A stretch of DNA of 35,201 nt, from NCBI GenBank assembly GCA_039586795.1, contig JBDHJS010000037.1:1-35201 (forward strand). The letters run 5' to 3'. The position numbers and the translations under genes were made by a program. This document shows positions 4,181-23,308 of the stretch, in pieces (the first letter of the stretch is position 1; the number at the start of each line of letters is the position of its first letter). This DNA is from Gemmatimonadota bacterium. Lineage in GTDB: Bacteria; Gemmatimonadota; Gemmatimonadetes; Palauibacterales; KS3-K002. The notes under the pieces were generated by a model that was not told where the DNA came from, did not search any database, and saw only the letters and a program-made list of their open reading frames with translations.

Positions 4181-6799
4181 TCAGTTCCCCAACCGCTCCC
4201 GCAACTCCGCGAACCAATTCAGCACCACGAGGTACCGCGACGTTGCCGAGGATTCTGAAACACTCACGTTTGGAACCAGGACGATAAAGCGATCGCCCTC
4301 GGGGTGAAGATCCCAGCCCTGCCCCGTTTCGATAGCGAGCACAGGCTCCGGAGTGCCGACACGCACGCCTTGCTCGCGGATCACTTCGACGCCGAAGAGC
4401 GTGTCGACCCCGGAGGTCCGCCGCCAGAAGTAGAGCGTCCTGCCGTCGGGCGACCAGCGGGGCCACTCCCCGCCGCCGAACGAAACTCGCCACTCTCCTA
4501 CAGGCGTGGGAAAGTCGCGTAGCCAGACCTCCGTGGGCCCGGTCTTCACGGACGTGTGGGCGGCGATGGACCCGTCAGGAGACAGCGCGAAAGCGCTTTC
4601 GTCCCACGGCGCTTGCAGGTAGGGTTCAGGTTCAGAATCTCCCGAGAGGGAGTACATCATCAAGTCGTCGTTCCCCGCCTCGTCGGAGCCGAACACGATC
4701 AGCTCGTTTTCGAGCCAGGCCAGGGGCCACTGGTTCCCGGGCCGGCTCAATACCCTCTGGGCGGGGCCGCTGTTGTCCGCCGGCTTGACCCACAGATCTT
4801 CGGCGTCGCTCCCTTCCCCCTCGTTATTGAAGAGGATCCGTTCTCCGTCTGGAGACCACACCGGATCGTCGTTGTCCTCTTCGAACGTGATCTGCGTTCT
4901 CGAGTTCGTCACGAGATCGTACGTGTATAAGTCGTGGCCATCGTCGCTCGTAACCTCGAAAGCAATCGTGCGCCCGTCCGGTGAGAAGCTGGGATTTCGC
5001 ATCACCTCCGGTGGGAGACGAAGGGTGTCCGCTCCTCCTGCCATGTTCACGATCAGCAACAATTGACCGCTTCCTCCGCCGAACGCCTCACCCTCGAAGT
5101 GAACGAGCGTCCCGTTTCGCGACAGGGAGTACCCTCGTCGGAAATTCGTGGCCGCCACACGGTCGAGGACGCGTATCGGAGGGCCGCTGAGCCTATGGCT
5201 ACGCCTGTCGAACGGCGCGGCGAACAGGCCGCCAGCCTGGCCAACGTACAGCAGGGTGCCGGGATCGATGTACGTGGGGTGACGACCATCAGGCACGACC
5301 GTCCAGAAGGTGTCTGCGGAAAGGTCGCCGAAGGAGATGCCGCCCCCAAACCGGCTTACGAGAACGCCCGAACCATCCGGCAGCGACCAGGGAACGCCCC
5401 GTGGACCGTTGAGCACCTCGGCGGGACCGCCGGCGCTATTGACGCGGTAATGAAGGCCGCCCTGCAGCGAGAAGAAAACGATCGTTCCATCATCGCCCCA
5501 ATGAGGGAAGAACGGGTTGATCGTGTCAGTGTCGACAAGCGTCAGCGAGCCGCCGCCGGACACTGCCACTTTCATCAGTGCATTCTCGGAGATATTGCTG
5601 AACACGAGCCACTGACCATCGGGAGAGAAGCTGGGAAAAAGACCGTCTTCGGTGCCGGGCACCATCCGGAAGTCGGCCTCGCCCAGCCTGCGGACGTAGA
5701 TCGCCCGGGTTCCATCGACCGTACCCGCGAAGGCGAGCGCGGACCCGTCGGGTGAGATGATCACATCCTGATTCCCCTCGACGGAGACCGATCCAAGACT
5801 GAGATCGAGCCGGGTGACCGGCGCGTCAGGTGTTTGCCGTAACCAGCCCCACACGGTAGTGATCAACAACAGTGCCGCGAGCGCAGCTGCCGGCAGCGCC
5901 AAGCGTCGTCGCCAATCGGTGGCTGGTGCGCTGACGGCAGCCGACTGCGTCGTCGCCGTCGCGAACGCCGGATCGGCCAGCGCCTCCGCGAACCTGGCAG
6001 AGCTTTCGAAGCGGTCCGCCGGCAGCTTCGACAACGACTTCTCTACGGCGGCGGCCACGTTAGGCGGCACCGAACGGCGCAGTTTGGTGACGGACTGCGC
6101 CTCTTCCGTCACGATCTTCATGATGATCTGCTGCGCCGTAGAGCCGACATGCGGGGGATCACCTGCCAGCATCTCGTATAGCACGCAACCCAATGAGTAG
6201 ATATCGGACCGGTTGGTGATGTCCTTCTCCGCCGTCGCCTGCTCGGGGCTCATGTAGTGGGGCGTGCCAAGCGACAGTCCCGTCTCGGTCATCCGGCCGC
6301 CCGCCGCGGCGGAGACCGCCAGCGCGATCCCGAAATCCGCCACCATCGGCCGCCCGTCGTGCAGCAGAATGTTCTCCGGCTTGATGTCCCGGTGGATCAC
6401 CCCGTTTCGGTGGGCGTAGTCTAGCGCGTCTGCCACCTCGGTCGCGATCCTGGAAGCCTCATCGACGCTGAACTGTGTCTCACGGTCCAGCTTGTCGCGC
6501 AGCGTCTCCCCCTCGATGTAGGGCATGACGTAGTAGAGGAAGCCGTCGGCCGTGCCAGAATCATACAGCGGCAGGATGTGTGGATGCTGGAGCGCCGCCG
6601 TGGTCTTTATTTCCTGCACGAATCGCTCGGCGCCCAAAACCGCGGCGAGCTCGGGCTTCAGCACCTTGAGGGCGACCTTGCGCTCGTGTTTCACGTCGTG
6701 CGCGAGGTAGACCGTGGCCATTCCACCCGCGCCCAGCTCACGCTCGATGCGGTAACGGTCACTCAGGGCCGCGTTCAGGCGATCGATCCCTCCATTCAT
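4181..6799 (-). CDS. Hanks-type Ser/Thr protein kinase with TM helix and C-terminal TolB/PD40-like beta-propeller
   Basis: Kinase motifs LGAGGMATVY, VALKVL, HRDIKPEN, DFGIA and GTPHYMSPEQ; a TM segment near aa 300-320; repeated FSPDG/WSPDG PD40-like repeats. Confidence 0.95.
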   Translation of the reverse strand: MNGGIDRLNAALSDRYRIERELGAGGMATVYLAHDVKHERKVALKVLKPELAAVLGAERFVQEIKTTAALQHPHILPLYDSGTADGFLYYVMPYIEGETLRDKLDRETQFSVDEASRIATEVADALDYAHRNGVIHRDIKPENILLHDGRPMVADFGIALAVSAAAGGRMTETGLSLGTPHYMSPEQATAEKDITNRSDIYSLGCVLYEMLAGDPPHVGSTAQQIIMKIVTEEAQSVTKLRRSVPPNVAAAVEKSLSKLPADRFESSARFAEALADPAFATATTQSAAVSAPATDWRRRLALPAAALAALLLITTVWGWLRQTPDAPVTRLDLSLGSVSVEGNQDVIISPDGSALAFAGTVDGTRAIYVRRLGEADFRMVPGTEDGLFPSFSPDGQWLVFSNISENALMKVAVSGGGSLTLVDTDTINPFFPHWGDDGTIVFFSLQGGLHYRVNSAGGPAEVLNGPRGVPWSLPDGSGVLVSRFGGGISFGDLSADTFWTVVPDGRHPTYIDPGTLLYVGQAGGLFAAPFDRRSHRLSGPPIRVLDRVAATNFRRGYSLSRNGTLVHFEGEAFGGGSGQLLLIVNMAGGADTLRLPPEVMRNPSFSPDGRTIAFEVTSDDGHDLYTYDLVTNSRTQITFEEDNDDPVWSPDGERILFNNEGEGSDAEDLWVKPADNSGPAQRVLSRPGNQWPLAWLENELIVFGSDEAGNDDLMMYSLSGDSEPEPYLQAPWDESAFALSPDGSIAAHTSVKTGPTEVWLRDFPTPVGEWRVSFGGGEWPRWSPDGRTLYFWRRTSGVDTLFGVEVIREQGVRVGTPEPVLAIETGQGWDLHPEGDRFIVLVPNVSVSESSATSRYLVVLNWFAELRERLGN

Positions 6800-7105
6800 C
6801 CGAACGATTCCTGGAGGTTCTTCGAGAAGAAGCCAGTTGACGGGAGTACACGACGGGCGCGGCCGTCAGCGTAGCTCGGTTGGGGCATGCCTGCTGAGCT
6901 CCGTAGGGTAGAGGTCGGTGCCGCGGAGCGAACGCGTGGCTCGACCGCGGTGCACGAGACCCGGGAATATGCCCAATCCCCGGGTTTCCAGGCAAGCTCC
7001 ACAAGACCGAACTTCTGCCGCGCCTCAGATCTGATGTCACGCAAGGCGCTGATGATCCGCAACAAGTTCAAATCATGATAGAAAGCCGTACTAAATCCCT
7101 TGTAC

Positions 7106-7122
7106 GGATGCCCACGGCATCC
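7106..7122 (-). promoter_or_regulatory. Candidate bacterial SECIS element 2 (for UGA at 7137-7135), lying in the 3' UTR
   Basis: Minus strand GGAUGCC-GUG-GGCAUCC: a perfect 7-bp stem with a loop starting GU, beginning 12 nt after the UGA. No U-tract follows, so it is unlike an intrinsic terminator. Confidence 0.68.
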
Positions 7123-7128
7123 TGGCCT

Positions 7129-7536
7129 CTACCCTCAACCGTACCAGGGTTTCTCGTCCGGCTCTACCTGCAGGCCCTCCAACAGTTTGTTGAAACCGCT
7201 GAACAGGTCTACTACCGCCATCAGCTCGACGATACCCGCATCATCTAATCCCAGCTTCCGCACCGCGGAAGTGTGAACCTTGATTCAATACTCGCAGCCC
7301 ATGACTGCAGACACGGCTACGGCAATGATCTCCTTTGTCAGTCGATCGAGCTTTCCGGACTCGACCATCACGGCCTTGACCTTGTTCCAGTTCGCCTCGA
7401 GAAAGTCGGGCTTCGTCGCCATCGCCTTATACATGTTCGGCACGAAGTCGATGCCTAGGGAGTTCATGATCTCCTCATACACGTCTTTGACTTTGCCCTC
7501 AGCTTTTTGCTCAGAGATCAGTTCCACAGATGCCAT
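7129..7536 (-). CDS. AhpD/carboxymuconolactone-decarboxylase (CMD)-like peroxidase-related selenoprotein, 135 aa, with predicted Sec84 (CEYU) and Sec134 (YGUG-stop)
   Basis: SD GGGGAG precedes ATG 7536. KEIIAVAVSAVMGCEY-TGA(7287-7285)-IKVHTSAVRKLGLDDAGIVELMAVVDLFSGFNKLLEGLQVEPDEKPWYG-TGA(7137-7135)-GGG-TAG(7131-7129). The sequence after the first TGA completes the AhpD-like CxxCxxxH helix and fold. Both TGAs are followed by SECIS-like hairpins. Confidence 0.88.
7255..7271 (-). promoter_or_regulatory. Candidate bacterial SECIS element 1 (for UGA at 7287-7285)
   Basis: Minus strand CUUCCGC-GGU-GCGGAAG: a perfect 7-bp stem with a GGU loop, starting 13 nt after the UGA. Confidence 0.8.
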
Positions 7537-7680
7537 GTTACTCCCCCATCAATCTGTTTCTTAACTAGCAGAAACGACACGCATGTTGCGAACTTTGCAA
7601 CCGGCAGCCAGCGAGTGCCAGCAGCCGCGAGTACCCTTTACTCTAAGGCCATCGACTTATGAGACATGCGGCGTGCGGGA

Positions 7681-7710
7681 TTGACTGGTCACGACCGACG
7701 CCAGTATGGT
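7681..7710 (+). promoter_or_regulatory. Putative sigma70-type promoter for the small ORF at 7841
   Basis: TTGACT (7681-7686), an 18-nt spacer, then TATGGT (7705-7710) in the divergent intergenic region. Confidence 0.35.
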
Positions 7711-7840
7711 GTGCGAATCGCAAGCGACTGGACCTGCAACTCCCTCACTCTATCGTCATGGCCATGGGCATGCAACCGTTCGTGCCAATGAAGCCTCGCC
7801 CGGTAGAAGTCTCTTCAATCCTAGGATGGGAGAAACGATC

Positions 7841-7993
7841 ATGGAGACGATGTCCGCGACCATCGAGCGACACCATCGGAAGATCATCGCGGCGCTACTA
7901 TTTGTCATAGCGTTCTTTGTAGCGGCGTGCACGTTTCATGACATTCTTCCGATTTGTCACTTCCTCTTCGGATGTGACCACGGGATGCACTAG
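7841..7993 (+). CDS. Small single-TM protein (about 50 aa) with a His/Cys-rich C-terminus
   Basis: GGGAGA SD precedes ATG 7841 (alternative ATG 7850). METMSATIERHHRK-IIAALLFVIAFFVAA-CTFHDILPICHFLFGCDHGMH. The stop abuts the convergent gene end at 8004. Confidence 0.6.
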   Translation: METMSATIERHHRKIIAALLFVIAFFVAACTFHDILPICHFLFGCDHGMH

Positions 7994-8003
7994 CTCGCTC
8001 GGA

Positions 8004-9920
8004 CTACCACCGCGGCGGTAGGTAATTCCAGCGTGCAAGAAACGCGAGCACGAGGACCACACCAACCGCCAGCGACGTGAAGTACGAGCGACGCACGATT
8101 CCCCAGTACCGATAGCTCCAGGCGCGCCACGTAAACGCAAGCACGGCCAGGCCAAGCGTTAAGAGCATATAGGGGACGACGGCCAGCAGTTGCATTTCGC
8201 TCGTCATTCCATAGACGATCCCGCTCGACGTCTCGAGCATGCGAATCGACCGCGCAACGAATCCGAAGGCAAACACGACGAACAACACGAAGAATAAGCT
8301 CGCCGCACCCAGTGCGAACCAACGGCCGGGCTGACGTCCGCGCGAGGTAGCCTCACGGCGTCGCTTTCGCCACCACCATGCTCCGAGCGACGCCAGAGGC
8401 CAGAGCGCGAACAGCACGATAAGGGGGACGCCCACCAAGAATGACATATACTCGTTCTTGAAGGAGGGTCCATCGTACCACGGCAATCGCTCGTAGGCGC
8501 CCGGCAACGCCGCCCCGAATGCCTCTTCGGGTGCGAACATGTGGGTGATGTTACCCTCCGCGTCTCTCCGGAAGGCGATCATGCGCGTACCGTCGACCTC
8601 GCGAAACGCGAGCGAGTCGACCGGGGCGAACTCCACCGTGCGACCTCCAACGGATAGCCTGATCACGCCATCCCGTGACCCCACCCGCCTCGTCATCCCG
8701 AACAACATCGGCAGTCGTTCGATGGTCGAATGCGCGTACCGGGTGAGAAGATACGAGCCCGCAAACGACTCTACGTAGCTCGGGTCCAGCTCCAGCGCGG
8801 CCACTTCGGGTTCGACATGATCAACGGAAGGCGCCATCGCCGAGATTATCGAATCGCGGAGCGCTCGCCCAAACCCCGCCCCTCCGCCATTCGCCACGAA
8901 GAAAAAGCCCATGCGCTCATCCGGAAGGATCAACAAGAGGCTTCTCGTCCCGGGGACCCCACCCGCATGCGCGAGCGCTCTACGCCCGCCCACGTCCTGG
9001 TTCAAGAAACCGTAGCTCATTCCCGGAAGCCGCGGATCGTGCGTGAACTGCTCGCGTTGCATGCGGCGGATCGCTGACGCTGGCAGTACCTCTTCACCAT
9101 CGATCACGCCACCGTTCAAGTGGGCCAAGAGAAACCGCCCCATGTCGGCGGCGGTCGCGTACGCGAGGCCGACAGGATACGGATGTGAAAACGGTTCCGC
9201 GACCGGCTCGCACGTGCCGCTACGACAAGAGTGTCCGACGGCTGTGAACTCGGCAATCGAATCAAGGCGAACGCGATAACTGGTGCGATGCATGGATAGT
9301 GGTGCGAAGAGCACGTCGTGGGCGAGGCGATCGAACGAAATGCCTGCTTCGGCCTCCAATACGTAAGCGGCGAGCGCCATGCCGTGGTTGGAGTAACCGA
9401 CCAGTTCGCCCGGCTCCCAACCCTGCGGCGGCATATTGCTCGCGAGATAGTCGCCGAGCGGCAGCATCGCGTCCCTCGAGGTCGCCGCGTACCCGATGAG
9501 TCTCTCATCGAGGCCGGCGGTGTGGGTCAAGAGGTGGCGAAGCGTTATCGGGCGATCGCCGCCCAACGGGACATTGGGCACAGCGTCACGAACATCCGCC
9601 TCGAGCGATACCTGTCCGCGTTCGGCCATCACGGCGGCAGTTGTCGCGACGAATAGCTTGGCAACGGATGCCACACGAAACGTGGTGCGTTCGGGGTCGA
9701 CGGGCGTCTTGTCCGCAACGCGTGCCAGACCGAATCCACCGAGATAGACGACGCTATCGCCCGCGACGATGACAAGCGCCGCTCCCGGAACGGAGTGCTC
9801 GGCCATCAACGCGGGGACGAGGGCGTCGAAATCGGGATTCTGCTGTGCAAGGAGGTCGCCATGGGCGACGGCGAGAACTAGTATGATCGCAAAACTGCAA
9901 ACACGATTCGCGTATGTCAT
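8004..9920 (-). CDS. Serine hydrolase, beta-lactamase class C/AmpC-like family, with C-terminal membrane helices
   Basis: Signal peptide; FRVASVAK (SxxK), LLTHTAG, YSN and HAGG motifs; about 4 C-terminal TM segments. Confidence 0.9.
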   Translation of the reverse strand: MTYANRVCSFAIILVLAVAHGDLLAQQNPDFDALVPALMAEHSVPGAALVIVAGDSVVYLGGFGLARVADKTPVDPERTTFRVASVAKLFVATTAAVMAERGQVSLEADVRDAVPNVPLGGDRPITLRHLLTHTAGLDERLIGYAATSRDAMLPLGDYLASNMPPQGWEPGELVGYSNHGMALAAYVLEAEAGISFDRLAHDVLFAPLSMHRTSYRVRLDSIAEFTAVGHSCRSGTCEPVAEPFSHPYPVGLAYATAADMGRFLLAHLNGGVIDGEEVLPASAIRRMQREQFTHDPRLPGMSYGFLNQDVGGRRALAHAGGVPGTRSLLLILPDERMGFFFVANGGGAGFGRALRDSIISAMAPSVDHVEPEVAALELDPSYVESFAGSYLLTRYAHSTIERLPMLFGMTRRVGSRDGVIRLSVGGRTVEFAPVDSLAFREVDGTRMIAFRRDAEGNITHMFAPEEAFGAALPGAYERLPWYDGPSFKNEYMSFLVGVPLIVLFALWPLASLGAWWWRKRRREATSRGRQPGRWFALGAASLFFVLFVVFAFGFVARSIRMLETSSGIVYGMTSEMQLLAVVPYMLLTLGLAVLAFTWRAWSYRYWGIVRRSYFTSLAVGVVLVLAFLARWNYLPPRW

Positions 9921-22722: not shown

Positions 22723-23166
22723 CTAGATGATCTTGCAGCACAGAGAGTCGGCCTTTCCCCTTATGAATCGAGCCAAACCCACCACCGCCTCGATCTCGTC
22801 GTCCGCGATGCCGACACTGCGCGCGATGGCCACGTGTTCTTCCAAGCTAGAGGTGCAGCTTACCGCATAAGCCGCACCGAGAGACACGAGTTCCTTGATC
22901 CGAGTCGGTTCGCCTGGCTCAGGATCCTCTTCGTCTTCAACATGCGCGACCCTCTTGCGGCCCAGTAGCTTGAAGCCGTGCCTTTCCATGATCTTCTTGG
23001 CTCTGTCGCGCACCGCGATGCCAGCCAACATCGCCTGTTCTACATCTCCGTCGGAAGCGCCAGCTGCGCGCACCCTCTTCAAATGATAGTCGGTGCACGG
23101 TTTACAGCCTGCCGCCAGCGACGTGCCAACGGCGACGAGCTCTCTTTCCTTTATCGTGAGCGACAT
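22723..23166 (-). CDS. Tandem two-domain CMD/AhpD-like protein (147 aa) with CKPC and C-terminal CC
   Basis: KERELVAVGTSLAAGCKPCTDYH...ARAAG in repeat 1 and KELVSLGAAYAVSCTSSLEEH...ARSVG in repeat 2; ends DSLCCKII. Confidence 0.85.
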   Translation of the reverse strand: MSLTIKERELVAVGTSLAAGCKPCTDYHLKRVRAAGASDGDVEQAMLAGIAVRDRAKKIMERHGFKLLGRKRVAHVEDEEDPEPGEPTRIKELVSLGAAYAVSCTSSLEEHVAIARSVGIADDEIEAVVGLARFIRGKADSLCCKII

Positions 23167-23308
23167 ATCAGATATCCGCCAGGGACGGCGCAGGCTAATC
23201 GCGTGTAGATATGGAGAAGTGTGGACTTGGCCTAACATACTACCCGGGCGGACACATGGAAACTCCTTCGTGGGCACGATCAGCCAAACCAGGGCTCGGC
23301 CACTGGCG

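Follow-up and report, generated by a model that had tools for sequence, protein, structure and literature searches.

Whether a single small protein of the AhpD/CMD fold can carry two selenocysteines (Sec), one in its core and one next to last on its tail, and what the second of these would be for, is the question raised by a gene in the window analyzed here, the whole stretch of 35,201 nucleotides. Read on the minus strand from the ATG at 7536, the frame passes a TGA at 7287-7285 and reaches PWYG, after which come TGA (7137-7135), GGG (7134-7132), and TAG (7131-7129). As judged from the sequence, the gene most likely encodes a two-Sec protein, with U84 in a CxxU motif and U134 penultimate on the tail. 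The features are as follows.

7129..7536, minus strand: AhpD/CMD-fold gene of 135 aa with two TGA codons putatively read through, from Pfam CMD, TIGR00778, and likeness to 2OUW
7541..7547, minus strand: purine-rich run resembling a ribosome-binding site, 4 nt upstream of the ATG, by sequence
7273..7332, minus strand: putative proton-relay residues Glu69, Cys81, Tyr83, Sec84, and His88, from the spacing in PA0269 and conservation
7285..7287, minus strand: first candidate Sec codon, U84 in CxxU (CEY-U), from TGA/Cys alternation across loci
7255..7271, minus strand: candidate SECIS for U84, within the coding sequence, with a 7-bp stem and a loop starting 20 nt past the codon
7132..7170, minus strand: predicted C-terminal coil, residues 123-135, ending PWYG-U-G, from the AlphaFold2 model and conservation
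7135..7137, minus strand: second candidate Sec codon, U134, penultimate, from TGA/Cys alternation across loci
7129..7131, minus strand: true stop codon TAG, from TAG/TAA/TGA variation in relatives
7106..7122, minus strand: candidate SECIS for U134, in the 3' UTR, from the hairpin and its covariation

In the window the gene is flanked by a Ser/Thr kinase gene and a small divergent open reading frame (ORF), and a beta-lactamase-family gene also lies near this copy. The divergent ORF (7841-7993, plus strand) encodes 50 aa without a Pfam match, and a similar ORF is found near the two-Sec gene in L061 and two other loci.

From 121 related GTDB loci we took the best 80 for comparison, and from 363 metagenome loci likewise the best 80, the latter queried with Cys84 proteins ending at Gly133. 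Codon 84 is TGA in 139 of the 160 loci and a Cys codon in 21. Codon 134 is not covered in L073 and L092, which were left out of the two-site counts; in the remaining 158 loci, representing 150 distinct proteins, it is TGA in 143 and a Cys codon in 15, and TAA, TAG, and TGG do not occur. The cysteine orthologs that the initial annotation had named as a test of a Sec at this position were thus found. So was the conserved TGA-Gly-stop arrangement, with GGN following TGA134 in 136 of 143 loci and a varying true stop after it. All four glycine codons are used (55/40/24/17), and the true stop among the 69 GTDB TGA134 loci is TAG in 29, TAA in 20, and TGA in 20; Sec would be penultimate in 56 of these loci and be followed by 2 to 7 residues in the others. 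The synonymous variation at codon 135 and the freely varying next stop indicate that translation past TGA134 is under selection. Existing annotation has a blind spot here: among 120 database proteins, Cys occupies both sites in 50, Trp stands at the two Sec codons in 31, which probably reflects a reading of TGA as Trp, and 36 have Cys84 and stop at Gly133, although one cluster at 90% identity mixes 133-aa members with Cys-extended ones. Tryptophan as the true residue was rejected: Cys is what aligns with TGA134, TGG is absent, and TGA ends 1426 long ORFs in the gene's own genome.

Downstream of codon 134, exactly 12 nt past the TGA, starts a stem of 7 bp (7122-7116 paired with 7112-7106, minus strand) with a 3-nt loop lying 19 nt past the codon and a folding energy of -11.6 kcal/mol. 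This satisfies the bacterial SECIS model as given in the available text of PMC13188914 (stem of 4 to 16 bp, loop of 3 to 9 nt with G in the first two places, spacing of 16 to 37 nt, and minimum free energy of at most -7.5). Taken alone, the window hairpin is of modest significance, with a z of -2.2 and 5 equally good folds among 200 shuffles. In a scan for stems of at least 6 bp that have G as the first or second loop base, at 14 to 24 nt past the codon, a hairpin was found in 60 of 69 GTDB and 43 of 74 metagenome TGA134 loci (56 of 74 with at least 5 bp), against a background of 80 of the 1426 TGA stops of long ORFs in the same genome. The hairpin is kept in noncoding DNA, and the flanking bases are not. 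In a MAFFT alignment of 70 sequences, two-sided changes were seen in all eight pairs tested (61 cells, a count inflated by relatedness among the sequences), which none of 500 shuffles reached, and the true register pairs in 84% of cells compared with 20 to 47% in slid registers; the outermost pair is formed in just 18 of 68 sequences. No terminator-like site was detected in 6700-8100, no U-tract follows the stem, and no Rfam family matched in 6800-7900 at E values up to 1. Coordinates and covariation thus agree with a SECIS in the 3' UTR, as described in the initial annotation (7-bp stem, 12 nt past TGA134, no U-tract), and covariation had been one of its tests. The 3-nt loop that it described is correct for the window sequence but not for the family, where the innermost C-G pair is mostly unformed and the loop has 5 nt (CGUGN, G second). 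With the Cys orthologs, the TGA-Gly-stop arrangement, and the covarying hairpin together, the proposal of a two-Sec AhpD/CMD protein is strongly supported, and UGA134 is almost certainly read as Sec.

The hairpin behind the first TGA goes with its codon: a stem of at least 6 bp is present in 65/69 and 69/70 TGA84 loci but in 2/11 and 1/10 Cys84 loci. The best explanation is that each UGA would be decoded by SelB through its own downstream hairpin, the second of which lies past the stop codon because Sec134 is next to last. A SECIS motif is still found downstream in five Cys134 loci (L070, L071, L072, L087, and L162), which suggests that the change from Sec to Cys was recent there. L087 is a close relative of the Sec134 loci L064 and L086.

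The host genome has tRNA-Sec, selB, selA, and selD, all above cutoffs, and its selD itself contains an in-frame TGA with a hairpin. Among 39 genomes with TGA134 that were tested, at least one Sec marker was found in 36 (selB above the cutoff in 33, selA and tRNA-Sec in 3 more), and the searches made found no marker in the other 3, all of which are drafts. One genome with a two-TGA gene, G020 (locus L020), is a single-contig chromosome with selA and tRNA-Sec and no selB above the cutoff. As a discriminator of Sec genes from Cys genes selB fails, being present in 33 of 39 TGA134 genomes and 6 of 10 Cys-only genomes. The subfamily was found across 11 named phyla, and its distribution is patchy: in a sample of the phylum, the two-TGA gene occurs in 3 of 251 genomes and selB in 204 of 251, a tally that includes G101, G201, and G226, flagged as unpublished. 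L166:1501-1960 and L167:1501-1960, from two different genera, have an identical protein and an identical printed 3' flank, through either recent transfer or binning carry-over. A search of sequencing runs gave five matches (word shares of 0.13 to 0.22), and the four examined were contigs, mostly of relatives less than 90% alike, and hence uninformative on expression.

The predicted protein is a CMD-family member by Pfam (PF02627; E 4.9e-17, 62.1 bits against a cutoff of 23) and by TIGR00778 (52.8 against 27.8 bits). At 135 aa it misses the cutoff of TIGR01926, a model of about 178 aa (73.9 against 81.8 bits), and those of NF041238, NF041047, NF041537, NF045649, and NF053654 (15 to 29 bits against 110 to 510), and the ESM Atlas gave generic CMD clusters and nothing more specific. 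Glu69, Cys81, Tyr83, Sec84, and His88 have the spacing of the relay residues Glu36, Cys48, Tyr50, Cys51, and His55 of Pseudomonas PA0269, as given in the available text of PMC3141380. Among the 138 two-Sec loci, E69 is kept in 135 and C81, Y83, and H88 in all; W131 and G133 are invariant over 158 loci. The AlphaFold2 monomer (mean pLDDT of 90) has six helices in an all-helical AhpD fold followed by the coil at residues 123-135, and with a pLDDT below 50 at residues 133-135 the tail is predicted to be loose, in line with the flexible tail proposed earlier. The tail marks one subfamily, since PWxG-C was found in 4 of 150 cluster representatives, all of them close relatives.

The closest solved relative, the Rhodospirillum rubrum AhpD-core protein 2OUW (E 5e-23 over residues 2-128, 38% identity), shares the fold and the CxxC...H site, but it is all-Cys, its alignment ends at residue 128, it has no PWYG-C/U tail, and its function is untested. 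Despite the 38% identity, the monomer model deviates from 2OUW by 14 Å rmsd, and longer relatives reach a TM of 0.7 in Foldseek; we infer that the model folds onto itself where the real chain would pair with a partner. In crystals, 2OUW is a dimer/hexamer according to the available text of PMC3141380.

The initial annotation had likened the tail to that of mammalian thioredoxin reductase, an oligomer whose flexible GCUG arm has Sec as its next-to-last residue and Gly after it. The likeness, an analogy only, stands for the penultimate position and not for the vicinal Cys: Gly precedes Sec134 in all 138 two-Sec proteins and Cys81 is the sole conserved Cys, so no vicinal Cys-Sec ring would be possible in the tail, in contrast to the vicinal selenylsulfide of the mammalian enzyme noted in the available text of PMC4607533. 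The fold is also unrelated, with no flavin/NADPH domain. Having no neighboring Cys, Sec134 would have to react elsewhere, whether with the core site, with a partner, or with a metalloid.

Sites 84 and 134 combine as Sec/Sec in 138 of the 158 loci, Cys/Sec in 5, and Cys/Cys in 15, with no Sec/Cys; that is, Sec occurs in the tail only in five loci and in the core only in none. His88 is replaced by Tyr in 18 of 20 Cys84 loci, in which position 134 is still Sec or Cys. About three switches between Sec and Cys per site suffice on the tree, and the asymmetry of five to none therefore rests on few events.

The surroundings of the gene were compared over the 160 loci. Within 3 kb, arsM, an arsC-like gene, or acr3 is found in 34 of them, a count that excludes ArsR-family genes and in which arsM was tallied after the removal of four generic methyltransferases (L006, L106, L111, and L118) from a 21-locus cluster. 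The other 126 have none of the three, many of them on short contigs. In the GTDB set the count is 13 of 80, spread over six named phyla and one delta proteobacterium, and in the single control genome, the gene's own, 0.4% of positions are as close to such genes. The order acr3-gene-arsC on one strand, with gaps of 20 to 89 nt, occurs in eight loci, and L127 has the order arsM-gene-arsC. The commonest recurring neighbors are ECF sigma factor (28 loci) and zinc-finger anti-sigma genes; others are arsM (17), a Cys-rich protein (17), SHOCT (16), an arsC-like gene of the low-molecular-weight phosphatase fold (15, with a representative that scores 91 against the NCBIfam ArsC cutoff of 158), a second CMD protein (14), an MddA-like protein (14), ArsR-family regulators (13), and acr3 (12). 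Neither ahpC nor halogen-metabolism genes are among them, and near the window copy there are no arsenic genes, the ars cluster of this genome lying on another contig. The arsenic link is thus no more than suggestive, as one 18-row clade contributes most cases of the acr3/arsC layout, 126 loci have no arsenic gene, and the control is one genome. That arsenic detoxification is a client of the two-Sec protein in many hosts is a suggestion that we make tentatively.

Several other genes in these surroundings deserve mention. The Cys-rich family of about 170 aa that adjoins the two-Sec gene in 17 of 160 loci (L057:1109-1681, L013:497-1018, and 15 more) has a CxxC near its start and no Pfam or NCBIfam match. 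Directly upstream of the two-Sec gene in L031, one open frame (L031:1068-2219) joins an HgcB-type ferredoxin, barely above the NF040864 cutoff, to an MddA-like methyltransferase. A CMD-family protein elsewhere in the window (22723-23277, minus strand), with two CMD stretches, a CxxC, and a Cys-Cys near the C terminus, resembles by eye the additional CMD gene that accompanies the two-Sec gene in 14 loci. The same genome also holds a second AhpD-like gene, L002:1487-2068 (G000:C77), which has a TGA in CxxU...H with its own hairpin and no tail Sec.

What the second Sec may do follows from this arrangement only conditionally. On the sequences compared, we lean toward a redox relay of three chalcogens whose tail selenol is recycled by the CxxU site, often in the service of arsenic detoxification (ArsC/ArsM); the relay from tail to core, taken by itself, we regard as fairly likely. 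The protein would be an oligomeric AhpD-fold thiol/selenol oxidoreductase with Cys81 and Sec84 as a fixed site and Sec134 on the loose tail. Sec134 would most likely attack a disulfide in a substrate or partner, or else an adduct of a metalloid and a thiol, and exchange with CxxU, in either its own subunit or a partner one, would then set it free, the tail acting as an exposed arm and CxxU as an internal reservoir. Shuttling from the tail to the CxxU center, possibly between subunits, had already been proposed for this protein. In many hosts, ArsC or ArsM may be re-reduced in this way, as AhpD re-reduces AhpC; the role of AhpD as an adaptor reductant for a partner is described in the available text of PMC3141380. 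It is somewhat unlikely that the protein is an unrecognized component of arsenic resistance whose lone C-terminal Sec arm passes electrons or As(III) between CxxU and ArsC or ArsM, a thioredoxin-reductase-like arm on an unrelated fold. Such a two-Sec protein would have escaped notice in databases because annotation either ends at the tail codon or translates it wrongly.

ArsR, ArsD, and ArsM bind As(III) through three thiols, and MerA has a C-terminal Cys pair. Instead of relaying electrons, Cys81, Sec84, and Sec134 might form a site of three ligands that takes up As(III), Sb(III), or Hg(II), the protein serving as a sink or chaperone for metalloids or soft metals. There are exactly three conserved chalcogens, the tail is retained in proteins that have lost Glu69 and His88 of the peroxidase relay, and acr3, arsM, ArsR-family genes (13 loci), and the HgcB-type ferredoxin of L031 are neighbors. 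However, most loci have no metal-resistance gene in view and 135 of 138 two-Sec proteins keep all five residues of the AhpD relay, which points to catalysis, and we consider this explanation unlikely.

The protein might otherwise act in general stress defense as a peroxidase or disulfide reductase, with Sec134 as a resolving residue that protects or recycles Sec84 and with the ars genes as fellow passengers on stress islands. This would fit the prominence of ECF sigma (28 loci) and anti-sigma neighbors and the patchy occurrence in the phylum, and the AhpD-like PA0269 with the same relay is weakly peroxidase active in the available text of PMC3141380. We hold it to be quite improbable in view of the operon-like position between acr3 and arsC or between arsM and arsC, the resolving thiol already provided by Cys81, and the tail-only forms, which have no core Sec to protect. 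It is very unlikely that the protein resembles Bmp8, a debrominase of the AhpD fold, in being a thiol-dependent reductive dehalogenase or a comparable small-molecule enzyme, its tail serving both as a lid and as a second nucleophile: sequence matches to (R)-2-haloacid dehalogenase reach E 6e-14, and Foldseek matches to these dehalogenases and Bmp8 have a TMq of 0.67 to 0.70, but they are fold-level matches at 15 to 24% identity and the recurring neighbor clusters contain no halogen-metabolism genes. These three explanations agree that Sec134 is real. That TGA134 is instead a plain stop, followed by a hairpin that serves stability or termination, as the 36 database proteins annotated as ending at Gly133 and the z of -2.2 of the window hairpin by itself might suggest, is extremely improbable given that the codon is never TAA or TAG in the 143 loci whereas the next stop varies freely, that Cys aligns at codon 134 and Gly135 varies synonymously, that 133-aa and Cys-extended proteins fall together in one 90%-identity cluster, and that no U-tract follows the hairpin.

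A Sec in CxxU of AhpD-like and CMD-like proteins has been known since 2005 (PMC1088965, available text), and Table 1 of PMC13188914 gives one Sec each for the AhpD-like (TIGR01926) and CMD-like (PF02627) families. With these families (available text of PMC1088965, PMC2398784, and PMC13188914) the two-Sec subfamily shares the CMD/AhpD domain, CxxU, an in-frame SECIS, and a predicted redox role; it adds the C-terminal Sec, a SECIS beyond the stop, and tail-only forms. Two-Sec proteins are a small minority in this 2026 catalogue, whose available text has no stand-alone AhpD/CMD protein with two Sec among its 119 prokaryotic families, and the distinction is one by listing, as the catalogue representatives may include truncated members. 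No description of a tail Sec in an AhpD-like protein was found in the literature, namely in the available texts of PMC13326102, PMC2398784, PMC1976440, PMC1088965, PMC4674687, and bioRxiv 2026.01.29.699744, and the main text of PMC12013277 contains no AhpD/CMD terms; BSepDB, Haft and Tolstoy 2025, and supplements may hold such sequences. The earlier statement that no AhpD-like family with this layout has been described thus holds for the literature searched and for the available text of the catalogue, and within that scope the tail Sec on a stand-alone AhpD/CMD protein is new.

Other known proteins share parts of the design. Mycobacterium tuberculosis AhpD and PA0269 have the five-residue relay with the same spacing (with Tyr as in PA0269; available text of PMC3141380), but in the two-Sec protein the second position is Sec and a third chalcogen is on the tail. 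The ArsM/AhpD fusion (NF041537), a selenoprotein family that links an AhpD-type domain to arsenite methylation, and MduS (NF045649) are likewise multi-Sec with an AhpD-type CxxU domain, but they are larger methyltransferase fusions whose additional Sec are listed in different motifs, and the window protein scores 27 bits against a cutoff of 510. PDB 6E8L, which we take to be the three-cysteine AhpD of Streptococcus pneumoniae, has a third thiol on an AhpD fold but is 183 aa long, has no Sec, and is 13% identical to the window protein in the structural match. KCU-star/DUF466 and SaoC (available text of PMC4607533 and bioRxiv 10.1101/2022.07.06.499078) have Sec at the very C terminus, so that the SECIS lies beyond the coding sequence, as for U134, and is missed by standard searches; they are, however, unrelated small proteins with Cys-Sec dipeptides, in contrast to Gly-Sec-Gly, the AhpD fold, and the second Sec here.

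In conclusion, the natural Sec/Sec, Cys/Sec, and Cys/Cys versions of a protein of 135 aa make a ready test system for a lone tail selenol, and the same set of variants bears on why one site retains Sec in preference to the other. Lying in noncoding DNA, the SECIS of U134 is under no constraint from protein sequence and offers models of bacterial SECIS elements a clean set of covarying sequences. Should the linkage to ars genes be functional, the protein would add a selenium-dependent step to arsenic detoxification.
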